A DNA stretch of 64,000 nt from an uncultured Chloroflexia bacterium. Its GTDB lineage: Bacteria; Chloroflexota; Dehalococcoidia; DSTF01; JALHUB01. This document shows, piece after piece, positions 28,356 to 63,993 of the stretch. The DNA is taken from assembly GCA_963719465.1 (NCBI GenBank), contig OY970386.1:789789-853788 (forward strand), written 5' to 3'. Each line of letters begins with the position of its first letter. Positions within the stretch are counted from its first letter, which is position 1. The notes under the pieces are model-generated. The model was not told the origin of the DNA. It worked only from the letters and a program-made list of their open reading frames with translations, and searched no databases. The position numbers were made by a program, and so were the translations under genes.

Positions 28356-29096
28356 CTAGGCTAGTCTCCCAGCTCGCCGAGCTCGTACATAAGCGCCGCC
28401 ACCGCTGCCATTCCCGCCGTCTCCGACCGCAGGATGCGCCGCCCCAGAGAGACGCGACGCGCTCCCGCCGCAACCGCTGCGTCCGCTTCTTCCTGCGTGA
28501 AGCCTCCCTCCGGCCCGACGAACAGCGACGCGACGTTCGAGCTGGCCTGCTTCGCCTGCTGCCTTCCGCAGCGTCTGCCGCAGCGACACCGCTTCTTCGC
28601 GCTCCCAGAGAAACAGCCGCAGTCCCGCCGCCGTCCCCAGCGCTTCCTCGAGCCGCGCCGGCGAATCGAGTTCCGGCAGCCGCGACCGTCCGCACTGCTC
28701 CGCCGCCTCGGTGACGATCCGGAGCCAACGCTCCCTTCGCTCTGAGCGCCCGGAACCGGGCCGCACGACGCGGCGGGCAGCCAGCAGCGGCACGAACCGC
28801 GCCACGCCCAGCTCCGTGCCCTTCTCCAGCAGCCAGTCGAACCGGTCGCCCTTGATGACCGCCTGGTAGAGGATCACCCGCGTCTTCGGCTCCGGCCTCC
28901 CCACGCGCCGTTCGACGACGGTCGCGCCCCGAGCGCCGTCCAGCGCCACCTCGTACTCGAAGCCGCTGCCGTCGAAAAGGATCACGCGGTCGCCGGCGCG
29001 CAGCCGCAGCACATGCCGCAGCCGGTGCGACAGCTCGTCGCCGAGCTCAACGTGCTCGCCCTGCACCGCCTCCGGAGCAACGTAAAACCTGTCCAT
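28356..29096 (-). CDS. rsmE: 16S rRNA (uracil1498-N3)-methyltransferase, frameshifted near 28560
   Basis: MDRFYVAPEAV...RVILFDGSGFEYEV...LYQAVIKGDRFDWLLEKGTELGV belongs to RsmE. The true C-terminus (SNVASLFVGPEGGFTQEEADAAVAAGARRVSLGRRILRSETAGMAAVAALMYELGELGD*) sits in a third frame ending at 28356. Confidence 0.8.
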   Translation of the reverse strand: MDRFYVAPEAVQGEHVELGDELSHRLRHVLRLRAGDRVILFDGSGFEYEVALDGARGATVVERRVGRPEPKTRVILYQAVIKGDRFDWLLEKGTELGVARFVPLLAARRVVRPGSGRSERRERWLRIVTEAAEQCGRSRLPELDSPARLEEALGTAAGLRLFLWEREEAVSLRQTLRKAAGEAGQLERRVAVRRAGGRLHAGRSGRSGCGGSASRLSGAAHPAVGDGGNGSGGGAYVRARRAGRLA

Positions 29097-29155
29097 CAAA
29101 TCCCTTCTGAGCGGCAGTGGTGCCCAACACGGAAACGCAATGCGAGCCCAAGGTA

Positions 29156-30000
29156 TCACGGGTCCGGGAGCAAGAACTCTATTCTTATCGGCTCGATCAC
29201 GCGATTCCGGACGTGATCCAAAATGGCGAATAGGATATCAGCCAATGGGCGATTCGTTGCTGATGGTCCTTCCTTCAAGACCACTTGCAAGGTAAAGACT
29301 GCATTCATGTTCGCTTTCGCAAAGTCTGCTGCGGCGGCGTTGTCAAATGTAGTATGGAGGATTTCTGTCCCGTCTTCCACAGGACCTGGTTCAATTTCCA
29401 AGGACAAAGGCCGGAGGACGGGATCAAGTGCGTACACCGCATCCCTGATGGTCGACTGGGTGATATGGAGCCGCCTGTGCTTGTCGATGTTCGTAAGCTC
29501 ATCGAGAATCCACAGGGGATGGCTGTGGGGGTCAAGGAGAGGATCTTCCTTCCGCATCTGATATGGTTGCAGCCCCTGGATCACCGCCTGCGCGTGAGGA
29601 TGAACTCCCCTCATTCTGTAAAGGCCGCTATGTGGAGCAGGGTCTCCCTTACGTTTTCCGTTACGTATCTTCTTAAGAAACTCGTCTTCGTCATCAAAAA
29701 TAGGGAAGGCCGTCTGCTTCAACTCCTTGCTGGAGTGCCTCACCGTCAGCGCCGTGATCAGATGGTCAAGGGCCAATCTAGTATTGTAGAGGAACTCACC
29801 GAGGATAACGTTCAGTCGAGGCGGCAGAGGTCGTCTAATCCTCGCTTGACAACTAGGTGCCCTACCTGCCCCACACCGTAGCTCTCGAATTCAATTGGGT
29901 TAGGGTTGTTGTCGCAGAAGGCGTTGATGGCCGCATCAGTCTCCGCCCAGTGCTCTTGCGCTCGATCGAGCTTGACGAGGTAGTCGGTCAAAATCGCCAT
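29156..30000 (-). CDS. hypothetical protein in a low-GC islet (possible HEPN-like Rx4H motif); probably one frameshifted gene
   Basis: ORF 29812..30000 (62 aa) and ORF 29156..29776 (206 aa) lie on the same strand. The latter frame stays open upstream to 29893 (...RLNVILGEFLYNTRLALDHLITAL...), so one indel probably splits one gene. GC here is about 50% versus about 66% in the flanks. I recognise no confident family. Confidence 0.45.
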
Positions 30001-30237
30001 GCGCTGTCCTCAGAACGTGAAGGACGCGGCAGTACAGGAAACCCCGAGGGGCACGAGATTCCTGCCGCCACGCGGGGAGACTTCATACGCCACCTGAAGA
30101 ATTCGGCGAAGCCCTCAACTCGGGCGCCCTCCCGGAGAGGCAGTTCCCCAGACTGGGCCCGCCCCTCCTTGAGGTGATTTTGGCGTTATGTGTAGCCTTC
30201 CTGGTAGCCCGCTGCCCGTCTAACGTCGCTTCCGCGA

Positions 30238-30266
30238 AGGCTGAGGGTTTCAACCCTCAGAACTGT
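30238..30266. repeat. palindromic element CAGTTCTGAGGGTTGAAACCCTCAG (inverted copy), downstream of prmA
   Basis: aaggCTGAGGGTTTCAACCCTCAGaactg is the reverse complement of the element at 59380 and a close relative of those at 59532 and 59682. Confidence 0.75.
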
Positions 30267-30283
30267 CTAATTATCCACATCGA

Positions 30284-31144
30284 TCAACCGGCCGCCTCGA
30301 AAACGACCGTCCGCCAATCTCCCTCAGCCATAACCTCGACGGCGCGGCCTCCGGCCCTTTCCAACGCCTCGCGGCAGTCCTCGACGCGCTCGCAGCCGAT
30401 GCCCGCCGCGATCCCGACGCCGCCGTGCTTCAAGACAGCGACGAGCTCGCCCGCCAGATCGATGACCGTCGTGCTGCTGATGTTGGCGACAACGCAATCG
30501 AAACGGGAACGCGGTACTACCGCCGGCCAGGCCTCACCCAGGCTTCCCTCCGCCACCGTCGCGCCTTCGACACCGTTGGCAACGACGTTCTCCGTCGCGA
30601 CCCCAACTGCCAGCGGGTCGTTGTCCAAAGCGACGACTTCGGCTCCCAAGAGCGCGCCGGCGATGGCGAGGATGCCCGAGCCGGTGCCAACGTCCAGCAA
30701 CCGCTGTCCCCACTTCAGGCGCTCAGCCAGCGCCAGTAGGCACATCCGCGTCGTTGCGTGCTGACCCGTTCCGAACGCCATGCCCGGGTCGAGCGTAATC
30801 ACCAGCTCGCCGGCTTTCCGTCGATGGTGCCGCCAGCGCGGCACGATCACGAACGGCCCGACCCGCTGCGCTCGAAAGTGCTTCTTCCAGGCGTTCGCCC
30901 AGTCCTCTTCGTGAACGGTGCGGCTCCGGACCGATGGCGCTCGCATGAGGGCAAGCCGCGACAGCTCGCGACGCAGGGCGCGGCGACGAGCAGGGAGACG
31001 GGAATCGCGCGGGAGATAAGCCTTGACGGTCGCCACGCCGTCGCTCGCTTCGATTGCGACGCCGCCGGCGCTGGCGCGCATCACGTCGCTTACGGCCTCT
31101 TCATCCTCCGGCGCGACGGCAACGGCGATCTCCAGCCAGTCCAA
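30284..31144 (-). CDS. prmA: ribosomal protein L11 methyltransferase
   Basis: LDVGTGSGILAIAGALLGA...VALDNDPLAV...VVANI are PrmA SAM-MTase motifs. It sits in conserved dnaJ-prmA-rsmE order. Confidence 0.85.
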   Translation of the reverse strand: MDWLEIAVAVAPEDEEAVSDVMRASAGGVAIEASDGVATVKAYLPRDSRLPARRRALRRELSRLALMRAPSVRSRTVHEEDWANAWKKHFRAQRVGPFVIVPRWRHHRRKAGELVITLDPGMAFGTGQHATTRMCLLALAERLKWGQRLLDVGTGSGILAIAGALLGAEVVALDNDPLAVGVATENVVANGVEGATVAEGSLGEAWPAVVPRSRFDCVVANISSTTVIDLAGELVAVLKHGGVGIAAGIGCERVEDCREALERAGGRAVEVMAEGDWRTVVFEAAG

Positions 31145-39457: not shown

Positions 39458-40456
39458 CTATTTCTTCTTCTGGAGCCAGCTCATCATCCCACGAAGCTCC
39501 GCGCCCACCTCCTCGATGGGATGTTCCGCGTTCTGACGCTTCAGCGCCCGGTAGTGCGGCCGGCCCACCTGGTTCTCCAGCAGCCATTCGCGGGCGAAGC
39601 TGCCATCCTGTATCTCCGTCAGTATGTCCTCCATCGTCTCGCGCACGCAGTCGTCGATGACCCGCGGCCCGCGCGTGTAGTCGCCGTACTCCGCCGTGTC
39701 GCTGATCGAGTAGCGCATGTAGCCCATGCCGCCCTCGTACATCAGATCGACGATGAGCTTCAGCTCGTGCATGCACTCGAAGTAGGCGATCTCCGGCTGG
39801 TAGCCCGCCTCGACCAGCGTGTCGAAGCCGGCCTTCACCAGCTCCGTCACGCCGCCGCAGAGGACGCACTGCTCGCCGAAGAGGTCCGTCTCCGTCTCCT
39901 CTTCGAACGTCGTCTCCAGCACGCCGGCGCGCGTGCAACCGATGCCCTTGCCGTACGCCAGCGCCACCTCTTTCGCCTTGCCGCTGGCGTTCTGCTCGAC
40001 GGCGACGAGCGCCGGTGTGGCGCTGCCCTCCGTGTAGAGGCGGCGCACCAGGTGGCCCGGGCCTTTGGGCGCGATCATCGAAACGTCAACGTCCTTCGGC
40101 GCGACGATCTGACCGAAGTGGATGTTGAAGCCGTGCGCGAACATCAGCGTCTTGCCCGCCTTCATGCTCGGCGCTATCGCTTCGCGGTAGACGGCCGCCT
40201 GGTTCTGGTCCGGCACGAGCATCATGATAACGTCCGCGGCGGCAGCGACCTCGGCGGCCGTCTTGACCGTCATGCCTGCAGCTTCCGCCTGCTTCCACAT
40301 CTCGCTGCCCGGCAGCTCCGCGACCAGCACCTGGCAGCCGCTGTCACGCAGGTTCTGGGCATGGGCGTGCCCCTGGCTCCCGTAGCCGATAATGCCGATC
40401 ATCTTGCCCTGCAAAAGGCCGAGGTCCGCGTCCTTGTCGTAGTAGATTGTTGCCAT
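39458..40456 (-). CDS. ilvC: ketol-acid reductoisomerase
   Basis: From [12 protein letters not shown]...[18 protein letters not shown]. The ORF-track N-terminal extension of 34 aa was discarded. Confidence 0.9.
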
Positions 40457-40591
40457 TGAAGTTCCTTTCTTCAGTCGTTTGTCCAAATCACGTTCAGCGT
40501 TCTCGGCGGGCGGACCGAGGTCCTCCCTAACATTTGCTACATCCTTAGCAGATAACACATCAGCCTGTCGAGCGCGTACTGCTCGCGGTCA

Positions 40592-41008
40592 TCACTTTGC
40601 CGTCTTTTTCGCCCCTGCCTTTGCCTTCGCCTTCGCCTTCGCCAGATTGTAATCCACAGCGGAACGCACCAGATTCCTCAGTTCGATCTCCTTAATCTTT
40701 TCGTCTTTGACATAATCGATGGTCCGCCATTTTTTGCCCGCAAGCCCGTTGTTGTAGAGCTTGTCCGGGTCGGCGACACTCGCGCCTTCATAGAACGTCA
40801 ATTTCACTTTGTCTTTGAAAGCATTGGCGATACAGACTATTCCGCCGTGAGACCATACCGGCGTGCCCATCCATTTCCATTCCTCAACTATCTCTGGGTC
40901 AGCCTCACGGATAATCCGTCGAATGCCAGCGAACGTCTTGCCGCGCCAGTCGGTAAGTTCCGCCACCAGGCTGTCTATCAGTTCACTTGCACCCATGTTC
41001 TTCTCCAC
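40592..41008 (-). CDS. DUF1801 (YdhG-like) domain protein, low-GC insertion between ilvN and ilvC
   Basis: WKWMGTPVWSHGGIVCIANAFKDKVKLTFYEGASVADP matches DUF1801, with a KAKAKAKAGAKK tail. GC is about 50% against about 66% around it. Confidence 0.7.
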   Translation of the reverse strand: MEKNMGASELIDSLVAELTDWRGKTFAGIRRIIREADPEIVEEWKWMGTPVWSHGGIVCIANAFKDKVKLTFYEGASVADPDKLYNNGLAGKKWRTIDYVKDEKIKEIELRNLVRSAVDYNLAKAKAKAKAGAKKTAK

Positions 41009-43636: not shown

Positions 43637-43876
43637 AGAAAAGACCCGTCCCAAAGGGATCCCATGGGACGGGACCGTACCACCCTTCTTGTCGCCTGAG
43701 GCGACCGGTTTCAGCGCGTTAACGGTCGCTTTCCGGCCGGACCTGGCGAAATCGCTCAGTCCGGCGGCTCCGGGGCGAGTTCAGGCTCTTCGTGTCGCCG
43801 GCTCTCACCATTCCGCCGGCTCTCTGAGACAGGAAGCTGGCCTTACTACTCCCCATCACGGCCTTTGTCTTATGTG
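43637..43876 (-). promoter_or_regulatory. T-box riboswitch leader upstream of the ilv-leu operon (candidate Leu specifier CUC)
   Basis: Minus strand: a GA-motif start (GAUGGGGAGUAGUA), a CAGAGAG AG-box, GAACUCG in a specifier-like position, and the T-box sequence AAGGGUGGUACGG. It ends with the terminator CCCGUCCCA-UGGGAUCCCUU-UGGGACGGG plus UCUUUUCUU. About 330 nt remain before ilvB. Confidence 0.55.
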
Positions 43877-44132: not shown

Positions 44133-44441
44133 TCACGGGACCGTGGTAACCAGCAACTCACGGCTGCTCTCCCAGAAGCCAAACCCAAAACGTTCGAAGA
44201 TCTGCTCGCGTCCGAAGAGGCCGACGTAGAGAGGGTTGGATGGAAGCTGCTGGAGAATGACAGGGCAATCCACCACCACGCCCAGGAATTCGATTGTTGC
44301 CTGATACTTGTAACCCACGACGGGAGCTTTTCCTCCTGCCGTACCAAGCGAAACTGGCTGGCCCGAATCCCAGGACGTGAGGCCGAGAAGGGGGTAGAGA
44401 TCTTCTCTCAGGGTCAGATACGACGCACCCGTATCGAACAA
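44133..44441 (-). CDS. retropepsin-like (clan AA) aspartic protease domain protein
   Basis: MFDTGASYLTL... has the D-T-G-A-S catalytic motif. An in-frame stop lies only 16 codons upstream, so the N-terminus may be truncated or mis-framed. Confidence 0.55.
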   Translation of the reverse strand: MFDTGASYLTLREDLYPLLGLTSWDSGQPVSLGTAGGKAPVVGYKYQATIEFLGVVVDCPVILQQLPSNPLYVGLFGREQIFERFGFGFWESSRELLVTTVP

Positions 44442-44585
44442 GAGAGGAGTGAGACCTTGTTCCCACCCGACGCCAACAGGTTAATGGTTAGGAGGGGGAG
44501 CCATATAGGTTGACCGGAGACCTGAAAAAAACTGATAGCGCGTTCAAAGTCCTTCGAGGGCATATAACCCTTCTCGTGTAGACCT

Positions 44586-45035
44586 TTAGGGGTGGTCTCG
44601 GTTGGAGAACGCTGTGTGCCAAACGACAGGGTCTGCCGGAATCTGAGTAATGAAGGGAGTCACGCCCTCCAGATCTGCCGTTGCACAGATCAGGGTGACA
44701 ATATCGGGGGCCGAAGCAATAACCTGGTGATCGACGATCGCAACCCACTGGCCACTGTATCGAGCGCGAAGATCATCGAGGTTCGCGCTTAACCATTCCA
44801 GTACTCCCGCCGCAGCAGGTACAGATTGAGAGGCGCGTATATTCGCCACATGCTCCGGGGGGACCAGACCCTCAGCGCCAACCTGCCAGTATTTCACCAT
44901 CACATCGCCCTGCTCCGTCACGTACCATTCAACGCCGAACGACTCCAACTGTCGTAGGATATCTTTAACCGGTAGGCCGCTCGTGACTAGCGATTCGATG
45001 ATGTCTTGTGTGCTGGTGCTTGACGAGACGTTCAT
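44586..45035 (-). CDS. DUF5678-like domain protein
   Basis: C-terminal GQWVAIVDHQVIASAPDIVTLI resembles the DUF5678 core. It overlaps the upstream gene by 4 nt. Confidence 0.5.
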   Translation of the reverse strand: MNVSSSTSTQDIIESLVTSGLPVKDILRQLESFGVEWYVTEQGDVMVKYWQVGAEGLVPPEHVANIRASQSVPAAAGVLEWLSANLDDLRARYSGQWVAIVDHQVIASAPDIVTLICATADLEGVTPFITQIPADPVVWHTAFSNRDHP

Positions 45036-45376
45036 TTGGAGCCTTCCGGCCGAGCCTCAATAGCCCCCTGAGTGCGAGTCCTAAGAATCTCACCGATGTT
45101 AGCGGCGTGGGAGATGCTCACCGTGATGGTAGCCCGAAGGCGCGTTCGGACCAGAGTCATCGTCCCGGTTGGCCCCGGCGGGCCGGGGATGGTTTCGTAG
45201 AACTGGAGTACAATCTCGTTGCCAGTATTTAGGACTTGCGCAATGTCGGAATAAAGGGAGATGGCATCCGGCGGCTGTTCAAAGACCCGCTGAGCCTGGT
45301 GAAGCTCGGGCTGCTGGGTTTGAGCTGGCTGTTCACCCTGAGTCATGTGCTCCCTCCTCGGTGGAGAGCATAGCAT
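45032..45376 (-). CDS. DUF3467-like protein
   Basis: ...ISLYSDIAQVLNTGNEIVLQFYETIPGP... fits the DUF3467 pattern (YSN...EFxLDF). Confidence 0.5.
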   Translation of the reverse strand: MLCSPPRREHMTQGEQPAQTQQPELHQAQRVFEQPPDAISLYSDIAQVLNTGNEIVLQFYETIPGPPGPTGTMTLVRTRLRATITVSISHAANIGEILRTRTQGAIEARPEGSK

Positions 45377-45634: not shown

Positions 45635-46906
45635 ATGACCACCACCTGGCAGATCGACACCCTGGACAACGGACTCCGCGTCGTCACCACCCCCATGCCG
45701 ACCGCCCAGTCGGCCAACGTCTGCATCTTCGTCGGCGTCGGCTCCCGCATGGAGGACCGGCGCGTCAACGGCATCTGCCACTACCTGGAGCACATGCTCT
45801 TCAAGGGCAGCGCCAAACGGCCTACCGCCCAGGCCATCTCCGAGGCCATCGAAGGCGCCGGCGGCGCCCTCAACGCCTTCACCGACAAGGAGATGACCGG
45901 CTACTGGGCGCACGTCCCCTACGACCGCCTGGACCTCGCCATCGACGTCCTCGCCGACATGGTGCGCAACCCGCTGCTCGACAGCGCCGAGCTCGACCGC
46001 GAGCGCACCGTCGTCCAGCAGGAGATACGCCGCATCCACGACCAGCCCGCCGCCTGGACGTCCGAGCTCCTCTCCCGCGCCTGCTACGGCGACCAGCCCA
46101 TCGGCTGGCCCATCGCCGGCACCGAAGCGACGGTCGAAGGCATGCAGCGCGACGACTTCGTGCAGCACATGGGCCGCTGGTACCTGCCGGAGAACATCGT
46201 CGTCGCCGTCGCCGGCAACACGACGCCCGCGCAGGTGCTGGCGCTCATCCAGGAGCGGATGGCGACAATCGAGAGCCGCGCCCTGCCGCCCATCGCGCCG
46301 TCGAAGCCGGAGCTGCCGCCGGAGCGCGTCCAGGTCGAGTCCCGCGACACCGACCAGTCGAATCTCGCCTACGGCCTGCGCGCCCTCTCCCACACCGACC
46401 CCGATCGCTACGCCCTGACGGTCCTCAACACGCTGCTCGGCCGCGGCATGAGCTCCCGCCTGTTCAAGGAGGTGCGCGAGCGCCGCGGTCTCGCCTACTC
46501 CGTCGGCTCGTCCGTCAGCCGCCACCGCGACACGGGCTCCATGGCGGTCAGCGCCGGCGTCAGCCCGGAAAAGGCGGAGGAGGCCGGCAAGGTCATCCTG
46601 GAGCAGGTCTTCATTCTGGTCGACGAGCCGGTGCCGGAGGACGAGCTGACCCGCGCCCGCGACTTCACGATCGGCAACTTCCGCCTCGGCCTGGAGACGA
46701 CGATGGCGCTGACGCAGTGGACCGGCGAGAACCTGGTCTCCACCGGCGAGATCGATCAGATCGAGGACGCGGTGGCGAAGCTGCAGGCGATCACCAGCGA
46801 CGACGTTCAGCGGGTAGCGAAGCGCCTCTTCCGGCGCGACAACGTGGCAGTCGCGCTCGTCGGCCCCAACGCCGACCCGGGCTTGCTGGAAAAGACGTTG
46901 CCTTAG
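45635..46906 (+). CDS. M16-family (pitrilysin-like) zinc peptidase
   Basis: Inverted zincin motif HYLEHMLFKGS with the downstream E of the M16 family; about 420 aa. Confidence 0.85.
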   Translation: MTTTWQIDTLDNGLRVVTTPMPTAQSANVCIFVGVGSRMEDRRVNGICHYLEHMLFKGSAKRPTAQAISEAIEGAGGALNAFTDKEMTGYWAHVPYDRLDLAIDVLADMVRNPLLDSAELDRERTVVQQEIRRIHDQPAAWTSELLSRACYGDQPIGWPIAGTEATVEGMQRDDFVQHMGRWYLPENIVVAVAGNTTPAQVLALIQERMATIESRALPPIAPSKPELPPERVQVESRDTDQSNLAYGLRALSHTDPDRYALTVLNTLLGRGMSSRLFKEVRERRGLAYSVGSSVSRHRDTGSMAVSAGVSPEKAEEAGKVILEQVFILVDEPVPEDELTRARDFTIGNFRLGLETTMALTQWTGENLVSTGEIDQIEDAVAKLQAITSDDVQRVAKRLFRRDNVAVALVGPNADPGLLEKTLP

Positions 46907-46909
46907 CGG

Positions 46910-47677
46910 TCAGCGCTTGTCCGTCGCGACGTTGGCAAGCATCCACTGGTAGCGCTCCGGCGAGAGCTGCTGCAGCTTCTGCGGATCGTAGAAGAAGAGC
47001 GCGAAAGAATTGGCGTAGTCCTCCAGCGGGTCGTTGTTCGACATGTACTGCCACACCTGCGGCCCGTCGTAGGCGAATTTGAGCTGCGTCTGGTCGACGG
47101 CCGCCGCCACGTCGGCGTCGCTGCTCAGGAGACGCCAGCCGGTGGCGGCCATGAAGTCGCGCATCTCCTCCTGGAAGAAGACCCAGGCGTAGCGGCCCGG
47201 CGGCGTCATCCGGAGCTGATAGGCGTGACCGAGCTCGTGGAGGACGGTCAGCGTCCCCTGGTCGGGGTAGAGGACCAGCTCGTTGCGGCCGTCGTCGTTC
47301 GAGTAGAAGTTGGCGCCGCTCGAGTACACTTTGCTCCCCGACATGTCGCGCGAGTCGCTGTTCGACAGGATGTACAGCGGCCCGTAGATGCGGCTCCCCA
47401 GCTCGTTTACGACGTGCGTTGGCAGCTTCCCCAGCGCTTCAAGCACGGTGTTGAGGCTCAGATCGTCCCACGTCTGGCCGTCGGTAACGATTTCGACGCC
47501 GTAGGCATCGCGCGCCTGCTGAACCTGGCAAACCGGCTCCGCCGCCGTCAGCAGCGGCAGGAAGAGGAAGAGGGCAAAGGGAGCGAGGAAGCGCCGCCGC
47601 AGCGGAAGGCGCCGCACGAGCCGTCGCAAGTGCTGAATCGCAGCGCTGGGTCGTATCTCAGACATGAGAACCGGCAA
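46910..47677 (-). CDS. secreted HExxH zinc-metalloprotease-like protein
   Basis: Signal peptide (FALFLFLPLLTAA) and LTVLHELGHAY (HExxH), about 250 aa. The family is not recognised. Confidence 0.55.
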   Translation of the reverse strand: MPVLMSEIRPSAAIQHLRRLVRRLPLRRRFLAPFALFLFLPLLTAAEPVCQVQQARDAYGVEIVTDGQTWDDLSLNTVLEALGKLPTHVVNELGSRIYGPLYILSNSDSRDMSGSKVYSSGANFYSNDDGRNELVLYPDQGTLTVLHELGHAYQLRMTPPGRYAWVFFQEEMRDFMAATGWRLLSSDADVAAAVDQTQLKFAYDGPQVWQYMSNNDPLEDYANSFALFFYDPQKLQQLSPERYQWMLANVATDKR

Positions 47678-60675: not shown

Positions 60676-61006
60676 GGGTGCGGCCTCCTGTCGCTGGGGT
60701 GATGCCGCCGGAGCGGATAGGTTCAGTATAGGGCGGCGAGAGGCGGGATGGGAAGGCGGCGTTGATTGAATTGTTTTTAAAAAAGATCGAGCTAATGAAT
60801 CTGTTAAGGGCGCTTTTTGTGGATTGATTTTCGGACGGCCGGGTCGGCGAGTCGCCGGCGCAAGGCGGGTGGTTCGGGGTAAGCGGCGTCGATGGGCGAG
60901 AACACGGTGTCGGGAGCCTTTCGGGGGTTGTTGAACCGAGGATAGCAGAGGGGCGGGGGATTTGGAAGCGGCTGGTGACGCAGACTTGTTCTGCAGGCTT
61001 GAAAGG

Positions 61007-61633
61007 TTATTGCGGGTAGGGGCGCAGGTTCTGCATGACTTGGACGAGGAGGTCCGGGTTATTGATGAAGACGTTGAGTTGCGCGTCGAGGGCGCGGTCG
61101 GAAGTTACGATGTCGTCAACCTCAGCACGAACAACAACGGAGTCGAACGTTAAGACGACGTTTATGCGGTGAGCGGGCAGATCTCCTGCGGGATGCGTGA
61201 TTAGTTGTGCCTGCTGACCCTGAATATTCACCTCGCGCTTGGTGACCTTGTAGCGGCTCGGAACTCCGGGCAGCGGGAGGTTTAGGATTCCCTGCTTTAC
61301 CCGTTCCCAAGCAGCGGGGCTATAAACGGTTATGTCCAGTGACGGGTTTGAGCCCGCGAAGGGAGTCGCGAGCCACGCCGAATACCCTACTTGAGCTCCC
61401 CCACCCTCAACCTCGTCGCCACTGCCGTACGGGCCCTGAAATGCCAGCCCATTCGCAGTGAACCCATTTCCTAGCCAGTACACGGGCAGCTCCATGTCCT
61501 GCATCGTCTTCACGTCTCGGAGGAAGTATCCATAGAATTGGCGGTTCAGTTCCTGCTGGCTCAGGCACGAAGCAGCAAAAAGGCCGGCGGCCAAGACAAT
61601 TGAGAGGACCAGGAGTCTACGCAGTAACGTCAT
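61007..61633 (-). CDS. hypothetical lipoprotein
   Basis: MTLLRRLLVLSIVLAAGLFAASC is a lipobox signal peptide. No family recognised. Confidence 0.5.
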   Translation of the reverse strand: MTLLRRLLVLSIVLAAGLFAASCLSQQELNRQFYGYFLRDVKTMQDMELPVYWLGNGFTANGLAFQGPYGSGDEVEGGGAQVGYSAWLATPFAGSNPSLDITVYSPAAWERVKQGILNLPLPGVPSRYKVTKREVNIQGQQAQLITHPAGDLPAHRINVVLTFDSVVVRAEVDDIVTSDRALDAQLNVFINNPDLLVQVMQNLRPYPQ

Positions 61634-61731
61634 AGCAGCCTCCCTCTTGACACTCCGTATGTTCCGAGCATCATACGTCTGTTCCAAAGACTCGGCAAGA
61701 GCCGCCGTTCCCTAACGTCAAGGAGGACGCT

Positions 61732-63993
61732 ATGAAAGCGATCAGCCTCGGGTCGCGTGTCACCCTTTCTTTCGTGGTCCTCGCGGTGGCTTTGTTCATC
61801 AAGACGCCCGGCTCCCTTCCATCGCAAGCCGCAGAGGAGGGTTACTTAAAACCCTTCTCCGTACCAGCGCAACAGTATGGCCCTCCCTGGCTTGGTCACA
61901 TTGATTGGGGAGGGTTTGTCCGGTCCCCTTGCTGCGACTTGCCGGTGACGTTTCCGGATGACGAGATAGCGTTCAGAAGTGACCTGGCGGCCGGCGTTGC
62001 CATCCAGATAGACGGCGCCCAGGTCCACAATCGGTGGATTTGGCGCTATTACGAGCCGGACGGAACCCTCTATTCAGATGTCTGCTTCATGGACATACGG
62101 CAACCTGGAGAACCCGGGAATAACACCTCGTATGTCGCATTGGTGACGAACTGTGGTTGGTATAGCGGATGGCAGGTGCTGGAAACGTTCCCTGGAGGGT
62201 GCCCCTGCTCCCCTTCCAATGCCTGGATGCTGGCCCCGATCATTTCCGGTGGCCCTCTCTGGTCGATGCGTGGCATATGGGATTTTGATGTTGACTACAC
62301 CGATGATTACACGAATCCGAGCGGAGACACTATTCCCGTGACCTGGGGTGAAATGAACTTGATGTCCACACCGGCGGTCTTGCTGGTGCACGGCTGGGAG
62401 AGCGATTGCAGCAGCGTCAGTACTTTGCAGCAGAATCTCGCTTCCATTCTCGCCATCCCTTCGGATAATCTCAAGTGCTACGACTACGATTCCCGAGAGG
62501 GGGTCGAGGCGGGGGCGCAGCATCTCAAGCAGAACATCGAGGATTTCCGGCAGAGACTCGCGCTGCTTCCGGATGAAGAGATCGACATAGTTGCCCACAG
62601 CATGGGCGGATTGGTGGCTCGTTACTACCGGGAGAGCCGCGACGAGAATGGCAATTTACTTTTGTATAATCCGGCGACCGACGGGCCCATTGGCAGCATC
62701 ACCATGCTAGGCACACCCAACAATGGCGTATGGGCTGCCGATCTTGCCGATTGGATATGCGATTACAAGCATTTCGGTTTTCTAACTTGTCCCGTATTTG
62801 ATTGGGCGACCGCCAAGTACTTTGGCGTAGATCTCACTTCCCAAGCTGTGGTTGACATGGCCCCCATGTCTTGGGTTCTGCGGGAGTTGAACCAAGGCTT
62901 CACTCTCCCCCAGTGGCCGGATCTGCCACTGTATGCAGCGCACGCTGGCACTAATCATGGTCCCGTTGGGGACGTTGTCAGCAAAAGTCGGAACAACGAC
63001 TGCTTGGTCGCTGTAAGTAGCGTTGGTGGACCAAACAACATCTTCGACCCCCTACAGTACCAGGTAAGCCACAGCGAATACCTTCCCTTCCCAGGATGTG
63101 GTTCCCCGTCCCTCGTCGATGATATGGATGTCGCAGACCACGTGGCAGAAACCATCAAGGGGGAATCCATATTGCCGGATATGCCTGCCACCGCAGCGCC
63201 GCAGTCTCAGACGACGGGGCTGCTTGCCGGCGCTGGGCCGATGATCGGAAGTGCAGTCGACTACGTGACGCCTAACGCCTCGAAGACATATACGTTCACC
63301 GTCCCCAGCGGTCTCGGAGAAGCATCTTTTGTAGTGTATTGGCTAGACTCCAATACGCAGGAAGCTAATCTGGGAGTCACCCTCCGTCGGCCCAGTGGCC
63401 AGCTCGTCAACCCGACCGATCCCGACCTGGCCGAACAACCCCAAGTAACAAGCAACGGCCCGTTCTATGTGTTGTTCAGCGGGTATGTCATGAACGCGCC
63501 TGTCGCGGGTGATTGGCAGGTTACAGTGAACGGCGTGTCGGTCCCCGATCAAGGACAAGCGTTTGTTGTGGCCCTGATGCCTTTGGACAGCCAGGTTGCC
63601 CTTGGCGCTTCCGCTTCTGCCCCACGAGTGTTGCAAGATCAGGCGGAGGTCATCACGGGGGCGGTGTTCGATGGCAGCAGCGCGATAGCCCCAACTTCTA
63701 TTTCGGCGGTGGTAACGACGCCCTCCGGGGACCAGGAGCCAGTCACTTTGCAGGACGACGGGACCGGAGGAGACCAGGTAGCCGGGGATCAAGTCTACTC
63801 AGGCACCTTCACGTCTACAACTCAATGTGGCGGATATGCCGTAACGGTGAACGCCACGGCGAGCAGCAGCTCGGAGGGAACCGTAACGCGGCAACAGTTC
63901 GTTACCTTTCAATCACAGGTGATTGGCGATGCCGTAGAGATCCATGCAACCCGGACGAAGATGGTGATGGTCTTCCTGATGCGACTGAGCTGA
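61732..63993 (+). CDS. secreted alpha/beta-hydrolase (PGAP1/lipase-class-2-like triacylglycerol lipase) with C-terminal pre-peptidase/Ig-like domains
   Basis: Signal peptide; LLVHGWESDCSSV...DIVAHSMGGLVARYY (GxSxG nucleophile elbow) ...MLGTPNNGVWAAD; a C-terminal beta-rich region of about 300 aa. Local GC is about 55%. Confidence 0.7.
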   Translation: MKAISLGSRVTLSFVVLAVALFIKTPGSLPSQAAEEGYLKPFSVPAQQYGPPWLGHIDWGGFVRSPCCDLPVTFPDDEIAFRSDLAAGVAIQIDGAQVHNRWIWRYYEPDGTLYSDVCFMDIRQPGEPGNNTSYVALVTNCGWYSGWQVLETFPGGCPCSPSNAWMLAPIISGGPLWSMRGIWDFDVDYTDDYTNPSGDTIPVTWGEMNLMSTPAVLLVHGWESDCSSVSTLQQNLASILAIPSDNLKCYDYDSREGVEAGAQHLKQNIEDFRQRLALLPDEEIDIVAHSMGGLVARYYRESRDENGNLLLYNPATDGPIGSITMLGTPNNGVWAADLADWICDYKHFGFLTCPVFDWATAKYFGVDLTSQAVVDMAPMSWVLRELNQGFTLPQWPDLPLYAAHAGTNHGPVGDVVSKSRNNDCLVAVSSVGGPNNIFDPLQYQVSHSEYLPFPGCGSPSLVDDMDVADHVAETIKGESILPDMPATAAPQSQTTGLLAGAGPMIGSAVDYVTPNASKTYTFTVPSGLGEASFVVYWLDSNTQEANLGVTLRRPSGQLVNPTDPDLAEQPQVTSNGPFYVLFSGYVMNAPVAGDWQVTVNGVSVPDQGQAFVVALMPLDSQVALGASASAPRVLQDQAEVITGAVFDGSSAIAPTSISAVVTTPSGDQEPVTLQDDGTGGDQVAGDQVYSGTFTSTTQCGGYAVTVNATASSSSEGTVTRQQFVTFQSQVIGDAVEIHATRTKMVMVFLMRLS

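Follow-up and report, generated by a model that had tools for sequence, protein, structure and literature searches.

A recurrent three-gene cassette with a retropepsin-like protease, a DUF5678 protein and a DUF3467-like partner: a candidate tripartite toxin-antitoxin or abortive-infection-like module

What might be the function of a compact, compositionally deviant cluster of three small genes inserted between a biosynthetic operon and a peptidase gene? The question is raised by a cassette of genes A, B and C, co-oriented on the minus strand of a 64,000-nucleotide stretch (the window; positions 789,789 to 853,788 of contig OY970386.1) from an uncultured Chloroflexia bacterium. An earlier sequence-only reading of the window had described three minus-strand open reading frames (ORFs) between an ilv-leu leader and an M16 peptidase; the ORFs are present and both neighbors are as described, the leader being a T-box ahead of ilvB (coordinates in Table 1). 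With moderate confidence, we consider the trio best classed as a tripartite toxin-antitoxin (TA) or abortive-infection-like module with new parts, in which gene C would supply a protease effector, the DUF5678 domain of gene B would neutralize it, and gene A together with the N-terminal domain of B would form an exchangeable accessory pair.

The three genes form a unit that recurs well beyond this genome. A genome scan seeded with the protease identified 28 loci in metagenome-assembled genomes, with hosts distributed among Desulfobacterota, Spirochaetota, Nitrospinota, Brocadiaceae, Nitrospirae, Chloroflexota, Acidobacteriota, Methylomirabilia, Binatia and Gemmatimonadota, and both the A-B-C order and the strand were kept in all 21 close loci of this set. 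A metagenome scan seeded with gene A yielded 80 loci, in which B and C followed downstream on every contig reaching far enough. In total 91 distinct trio sequences were collected, and since the arrangement recurs in so many distinct loci it is not a product of chance; the co-occurrence for which a gene-neighborhood check had been proposed is thereby established. A and B mostly meet in an ATGA-type overlap, and the 4-nt overlap claimed for the window is indeed seen at 45032-45035, while B and C overlap by 11-20 nt in most lineages and are separated instead by a gap of 22-25 nt in the window and its nearest relatives.

Gene C encodes a retropepsin-like aspartic protease, as had been proposed from the sequence. 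The Pfam family Asp_protease_2 (PF13650) is matched with 25.3 bits by the 102-aa ORF and with 26.6 bits by the protein repaired as described below, both above the gathering threshold (GA) of 24.3, and an alignment of 39 sequences revealed an invariant catalytic motif (D44, T45, G46, A47 and S48, or DTGAS) and an equally invariant downstream element (G115, L116, G118 and R119, or GLxGR) within a family whose mean column identity is 67% across phyla. Weak Pfam matches to gag-asp_proteas were also obtained, and NCBIfam gave only a sub-threshold match to the clan AA model TIGR02281. Retropepsin-like proteases need dimerization to form their active site, and single-domain members include the RVP domain of Ddi1 and rickettsial APRc. 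The gene C family resembles these in its DTGAS motif, the downstream G-L-x-G-R-E/D element and a length of about 140 aa, suggesting a homodimeric active site, and differs from them in an invariant FGFGFWE C-terminus, an N-terminal region of about 43 residues, a putatively soluble character, apparently free of membrane segments, and a constant operon linkage to DUF5678.

The DUF5678 call for gene B likewise holds. Residues 92-133 match this family (PF18929) with 26.2 bits against a GA of 23.2, as do 14 of 14 gene B homologs (best E-value 1.9e-10), and beside the DUF5678 fold lies an invariant C-terminal tail (T-Q-I-P...P..W.TA). In an AlphaFold model of gene B only the DUF5678 region is predicted with confidence, as a helical hairpin and a beta-beta-alpha-beta element. 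In most of 100 representative proteins the DUF5678-like domain is C-terminal, following variable N-termini of 0 to about 200 residues; two longer proteins, P0273 (556 aa) and P0334 (607 aa), contain 5-7 tandem DUF5678-like matches rather than the usual single C-terminal copy. Pfam recognized no DNA-binding domain in either gene A or gene B.

Gene A, for which 243 homologs were found, is best read as a divergent branch of DUF3467, an assignment that rests on its relatives more than on the window protein. The latter scores 16 bits against PF11950 (E=0.012), under the GA of 25, and a homolog from locus L040 reaches 19.1 bits; a precomputed PF11950 match is carried by 7 of the 120 homologs listed, and one homolog is named a DUF3467 protein by NCBI. 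The earlier DUF3467 call thus finds a basis in the homologs, whereas the window protein itself falls below threshold. In an AlphaFold2 model (pLDDT 80) a sheet of three strands leads into a long helix, and the best fold matches of the model (COMMD, PC4, PUR and levivirus coat proteins) are all non-significant, with E-values of at least 0.2. Searching PDB sequences with the gene A and gene B profiles gave no match. SecB was considered as a possible relative of gene A and rejected, an hhalign comparison with E. coli SecB returning a probability of 1.5%.

The beginning of the cassette required one correction. Gene A had been started at 45376, which is probably too far upstream: the true start is probably the ATG at 45346, because it is preceded by the Shine-Dalgarno (SD) sequence GAGGAGGG, gives the 104-aa product of the source gene call and agrees with the homologs, and because the ATG at 45376 falls within the spacer of the cassette promoter. 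When the upstream regions of nine loci with unrelated flanks are aligned, both hexamers of this promoter and the SD sequence prove to be conserved, suggesting that the cassette travels with a putative conserved promoter of its own. A generic promoter scan with a cutoff of 9/12 missed this element, which scores 8/12. Close relatives (L001, L049-L056 and L068) also share a conserved block (cctattgcgtcaaacc...cagctatcatt) about 60-110 nt upstream of gene A and upstream of the cassette promoter; it may represent an additional promoter, an operator or a small RNA, and its absence from the window marks a different left boundary there.

The main clue to function is that relatives of the cassette exchange its parts. 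In four loci with proteases of 35-40% identity (L025-L028) the gene upstream of the protease retains the C-terminal DUF5678 domain alone, behind an N-terminus unrelated to that of B, and the first gene is no longer A and encodes instead a protein of about 295 aa (L025-L027) or 109 aa (L028), neither with a Pfam match. The reverse exchange is found at L040 (1977-2991), where an A protein (P0205, 68% identical to that of the window) precedes a protein of 122 aa and, after it, a PIN gene (PF01850, 1.3e-14). Homology links residues 21-64 of this middle protein to residues 15-58 of B (4e-8 by HMMER; 84% probability and E-value 8e-6 by hhalign), and four sequencing or assembly datasets contain contigs with the same operon (L040, L130-L132). 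The N-terminal domain of B (residues ~1-72) therefore co-occurs with gene A and its C-terminal DUF5678 domain with the protease, and these partner swaps in the distant variant and the PIN operon mean that the two associations are separable. By analogy, this architecture is that of modular TA systems, the tripartite ones in particular.

Two observations concern the genes that accompany these variants. The conserved first gene of the distant variant (MSIIVSLTVPDAVILGVDS..., encoding about 290-300 aa; L025:2705-3604, L026:2735-3607 and L027:2666-3574) overlaps the B-like gene; its ~295-aa product has no significant match in Pfam, PADLOC or PDB sequences, and its N-terminus resembles by eye those of Ntn-hydrolases and proteasome beta subunits. 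Just upstream of the PIN operon lies a gene for an Inhibitor_I42 (chagasin-like) protease inhibitor.

How might such a module operate? In the scheme we favor, gene C would be a cytoplasmic, homodimer-type retropepsin-like protease acting as the effector, and presumably harmful when free. The DUF5678 domain of B would most likely bind and neutralize it, whether as an inhibitor, a pseudo-substrate or a blocker of dimerization. Gene A would bind the N-terminal domain of B and thereby control the stability, folding or expression of B, its role being most likely that of a chaperone or adaptor, and alternatively that of a co-repressor or sensor. The protease would then be freed upon loss, titration or sequestration of B or A, as might follow loss of the element or phage infection. 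A more specific version of this scheme, which we offer tentatively, holds that the cassette represents an undescribed class of system combining a retropepsin-like toxin, a DUF5678 antitoxin domain, and a DUF3467 protein with an antitoxin extension portable onto other toxins such as PIN. Within this narrower proposal, and with the same reserve, the A protein and the B N-terminal domain may be viewed as a portable control module for addiction or sensing, a non-SecB analog of the chaperone-addicted TA systems.

The strict coupling of the protease to its partners could also reflect a non-toxic maturation or regulatory system, in which C cleaves B or A to release a fragment or inactivate a regulator, much as in ImmA/IrrE-type protease-repressor pairs or retroviral Gag-Pro. 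Mobile elements often carry protease-regulator pairs, the two domains of B could be parted by cleavage, and its invariant C-terminal tail is a possible cleavage or docking site. Nevertheless, neither A nor B has a DNA-binding domain recognizable by Pfam, the cassette contains no obvious cargo to regulate, and the pairing of A with the B N-terminal domain is also found on PIN, a classical toxin family, an arrangement that suits a toxin in this position better than a processing enzyme. We regard a processing role as unlikely, and as the main functional alternative to the tripartite TA or abortive-infection-like module.

Comparison with known systems helps to delineate what is familiar in the module and what is not. 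Type II TA systems resemble the trio in their small, adjacent, co-oriented and translationally coupled genes and their patchy mobile distribution, and the placement of DUF5678 behind variable N-termini recalls the toxin-binding regions of antitoxins. The PIN-containing (VapBC-like) systems too consist of overlapping small genes, antitoxin-like first and toxin second, with TA and transposase neighbors, and in one lineage a PIN gene takes the place of the protease behind homologs of A and the B N-terminal domain. They differ in that the putative effector of the trio is a protease and not an RNase, its antitoxin-like protein has no recognizable DNA-binding domain, and an extra gene comes first. 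Such a first gene, small and separate and followed by antitoxin and toxin, is known from the omega-epsilon-zeta systems, in which omega is a ribbon-helix-helix protein. The gene order is the same and A could play the part of the regulator, but there is no similarity in sequence or fold, A being predicted to form a three-stranded sheet and a long helix.

The toxin-antitoxin-chaperone (TAC) systems, such as HigB1-HigA1-SecB(TA) of M. tuberculosis and CmdTAC, also consist of three small co-transcribed genes with a patchy mobile distribution. Published accounts of TAC systems describe a chaperone dependency conferred by an extension of the antitoxin, and indicate that TACs can act in phage defense (PMC6377645, PMC5105189, bioRxiv 10.1101/2024.02.24.581848, PMC11618068). 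In the trio, too, the protein in the antitoxin position has an additional segment whose occurrence follows that of the third component, and the accessory pair is associated with more than one toxin family, in this case the protease and PIN. Yet the cassette fails membership of the TAC group, because it encodes no SecB-like protein and because the extension of B is N-terminal (residues ~1-72), the C-terminus, where TAC antitoxins carry the ChAD segment, being occupied by DUF5678. Further differences are that the accessory gene is the first of the operon rather than the last and that the putative effector is an aspartic protease.

A connection to defense, which had been suggested together with addiction as a possible role, emerges from the PADLOC models. 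Among 39 members of the protease family 24 match PDC-M08B (best 4.3e-6) and 13 match PDC-M52B (best 2.3e-5), and the distant DUF5678 (B-like) protein of L028 matches PDC-M08A (1.6e-3). The PDCs were nominated as cassettes embedded in BREX, DISARM or type I restriction-modification (RM) loci and are as yet untested, PDC-M08 being a two-gene cassette with 381 listed instances whose supplementary entry gives family numbers without annotation (bioRxiv 10.1101/2024.01.29.577857). The second protein of the two-gene cassettes PDC-M08 and PDC-M52 is thus a remote homolog of the gene C family, and the core pair of DUF5678 protein and protease seems to correspond; no DUF3467 partner accompanies the two genes of PDC-M08. 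Unlike the PDCs, the window copy is not embedded in a defense system, and no BREX, DISARM or type I RM genes occur in the sampled contexts. The relation of the window cassette to PDC-M08/M52 appears to be one of remote family relationship and not of membership, because its own proteins remain below significance against the PDC models. The suggestion of an addiction- or defense-related role thus gains from these matches and from the PIN partner of A and the B N-terminal domain, which make it plausible without proving it.

In the window itself the protease lacks an uninterrupted frame for the whole fold. Gene C reads there as two ORFs, one of 49 aa (44414-44563, MPSKDFERAISFFQVSGQPIWLPLLTINLLASGGNKVSL...) supplying the N-terminus and one of 102 aa (44133-44441) running from DTGAS to the C-terminus. 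The sequence-only reading had described the latter as the third ORF, with D-T-G-A-S at its extreme N-terminus and an in-frame stop 16 codons upstream. Both features are seen (the ORF begins MFDTGAS, and a TAA precedes its TTG start by 14 codons and the Asp by 16), but the gene in fact extends to an ATG at 44563 and comprises 143 codons split by a 1-nt deletion. The indel suspected upstream of the protease was located by DNA alignment with relatives L001 and L002: one base is lost in ACTCC(C)TCTC, three codons before the catalytic DTGAS, leaving ACTCCTCTC in the window as opposed to CTCCCTCTC-type sequence (V-S-L-P-L-L-F-D) in homologs. Once repaired, the 143-aa protein aligns end to end with homologs of 143-146 aa at 100% coverage, with 73-75% identity to the closest. 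The gene otherwise keeps all 33 invariant and 19 nearly invariant positions of the family and contains no extra stops, and since nothing else is wrong with it, the inactivation must be either very recent or a base-calling error. A terminator-like hairpin (GGGTGGGA...TCTCACTC, 44447-44468, minus strand) overlaps the frameshift site, probably by coincidence.

The second of these possibilities, that nothing is missing from the cassette and the true genome has a complete gene for the 143-aa protease, draws on the otherwise faultless gene, on the position of the missing base in a short C/T run, CTCC(C)TCTC, and on hints in the sequence-only reading of further indels in the assembly. Set against this, a separately assembled Logan contig (L004, run ERR10755942) has the same deletion within 1550 bp of 100% identity, though it may share reads with the genome assembly; the C run is only 2-3 bases long and not a typical site of homopolymer error; and disrupted proteases at two more loci of the family demonstrate that real decay occurs. 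A sequencing or assembly error is hence an improbable account of the missing base, and gene C of the window is probably inactivated, a pseudogene unless that base was misread, with A and B intact. In terms of the proposed module, a single-nucleotide deletion would have silenced the effector and spared both of its controlling partners. Across the 91 loci gene C is broken in three, gene A in one and gene B in none, a pattern of decay that fits a harmful effector, and the two other broken proteases (L023 and L093) are disrupted at sites different from that in the window. The L093 protease is truncated after position 84 of the hidden Markov model, and the one broken gene A (L111:1875-2150) has a single in-frame stop.

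As to the origin of the cassette, composition and context both point to horizontal acquisition. The sequence-only reading had put the stretch at about 55% GC; the measured value is 56.6% against 64.3% for the whole window, and an equally low GC is found in only 2% of 1.3-kb segments of the 64 kb. At third codon positions (GC3) the contrast is sharper, with 0.61-0.65 in the cassette against 0.863 +/- 0.040 (minimum 0.789) in 16 long host genes, more than five standard deviations under their mean. Elsewhere, where the GC of the host exceeds about 55%, that of the trio lies 5-20 points under its surroundings. Its flanks vary from locus to locus (genes for a sugar-phosphate isomerase, GcpE, xanthine-dehydrogenase-type proteins, tRNA synthetases and others), identical A proteins (P0151, P0247) are found in different flanks, and recurrent neighbors include IS200/IS605-type, DDE and DUF772 transposases, a tyrosine integrase, and the TA genes PIN, RHH, HicB and DUF433/DUF5615. 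Acquisition from outside, as earlier supposed, is supported by GC3, by the identical proteins in different flanks and by the nearby transposase and integrase genes. The window copy is foreign DNA that was inserted recently, on the upstream side of the promoter of the ilv T-box; tRNA genes, flanking direct repeats and a terminator were looked for at its borders in the window and none was found.

Foreign composition, the retropepsin-like fold, and the integrase or transposase genes near some copies might equally be expected of a retroelement or prophage remnant in which the protease is a viral relic. This is very unlikely, as reverse transcriptase, capsid and integrase genes are not consistently linked to the trio, no flanking repeats were found and no relatives among 2.9 million viral contigs of IMG/VR, and the conserved unit consists of the three genes alone. 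Least probable of all is expression of a split protease by programmed -1 ribosomal frameshifting in the manner of retroviral gag-pro, which the required frame change of -1, the weak gag-asp_proteas matches and the overlapping hairpin-like element might recall, given that the protease is a single ORF in 88 of 91 loci, the base missing here is present in the closest relatives (73% identity), other broken copies are disrupted elsewhere, no X XXY YYZ slippery heptamer lies in phase at the required position, and the hairpin is at or upstream of the site instead of downstream.

Several points weigh against the assignment of the trio to tripartite TA or abortive-infection-like modules. Type II TA systems rarely have a protease as their toxin, and a literature search found no relevant work on DUF5678, DUF3467, a retropepsin-like toxin, antitoxin or defense protein, or PDC-M08. 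Foldseek searches of PDB and BFVD returned no significant neighbor for gene A or gene B, SecB was absent from the top 50 PDB hits for gene A (best E-value 0.2), and the N-terminal domain of B was modeled at low confidence. The A-X-PIN arrangement apparently derives from one lineage, and the decay pattern, with four events, is not statistically significant. With regard to defense and mobility, the window cassette lies outside any defense island, between the T-box/ilv operon and the peptidase gene; its proteins fall short of the PADLOC models (E=0.072 for the protease, no match for A and B); and no relatives were found among 2.9 million IMG/VR viral contigs or in PLSDB plasmids.

Table 1. Positions of the cassette, its signals and its flanking features in the window.
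Feature	Position	Strand	Basis or remark
Gene trio A-B-C, three co-oriented ORFs	45032-45376, 44586-45035, 44133-44441	-	ORF list
Gene A, 104-aa DUF3467-like protein	45032-45346	-	homologs, SD sequence, source annotation
Gene B, 149-aa two-domain protein	44586-45035	-	Pfam and homologs
Gene C, retropepsin-like aspartic protease, 143 codons once repaired	44133-44563	-	frameshifted
1-nt deletion site in gene C	44442-44450 (about)	-	DNA alignment with L001 and L002
Putative cassette promoter, -35 TTGCTA, 17-nt spacer, -10 TATGCT	45395-45390 (-35), 45372-45367 (-10)	-	read from sequence
SD sequence of gene A	45359-45352	-	read from sequence
T-box leader of ilvBNC operon, outside cassette	43662-43868	-	RF00230, 98.2 bits, E=8.6e-22
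Promoter of T-box leader, TTGACA-17-TATACT	43911-43883	-	promoter scan, 11/12 positions
M16 peptidase, divergent, outside cassette	45635-46906	+	Peptidase_M16 2.5e-38, Peptidase_M16_C 7.3e-42

The neighborhood of the cassette offers some observations of its own. The T-box leader is followed by ilvB, ilvN and ilvC (with Pfam matches for ilvB and ilvC), and a 138-aa ORF of GC ~0.53 (MEKNMGASELIDSLVAELTDWRGKTF..., 40592-41008, minus strand) lies between ilvN (41030-~41600) and ilvC (39458-40588) and has the appearance of another small piece of foreign DNA, in this case inserted within the ilvBNC operon. On the other side, the M16 peptidase gene has a GC3 of 0.955 and is adjoined by a 255-aa ORF (46910-47677, minus strand) with a HELGH (HExxH-type) motif, a hydrophobic N-terminus and no Pfam match, which may encode an unclassified metalloprotease. 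Two more distant regions, ~28900-30500 and ~60700-63900, fall to a GC of 0.58 or less in 1.3-kb segments, resembling the cassette in this respect, and may be further acquired islands.

For the annotation of this genome, the analysis means that the 102-aa 'aspartyl protease' represents just the end portion of a 143-codon gene split by a frameshift. If the assignment to a tripartite TA or abortive-infection-like module is true, its consequences would be wider: an aspartic protease would join the short list of proteolytic toxins and effectors in prokaryotic conflict systems, and DUF5678 and DUF3467 would obtain their first functional contexts. There would then be a second, SecB-independent way to make an antitoxin depend on a third protein, and a rationale for testing the PADLOC candidates PDC-M08 and PDC-M52.

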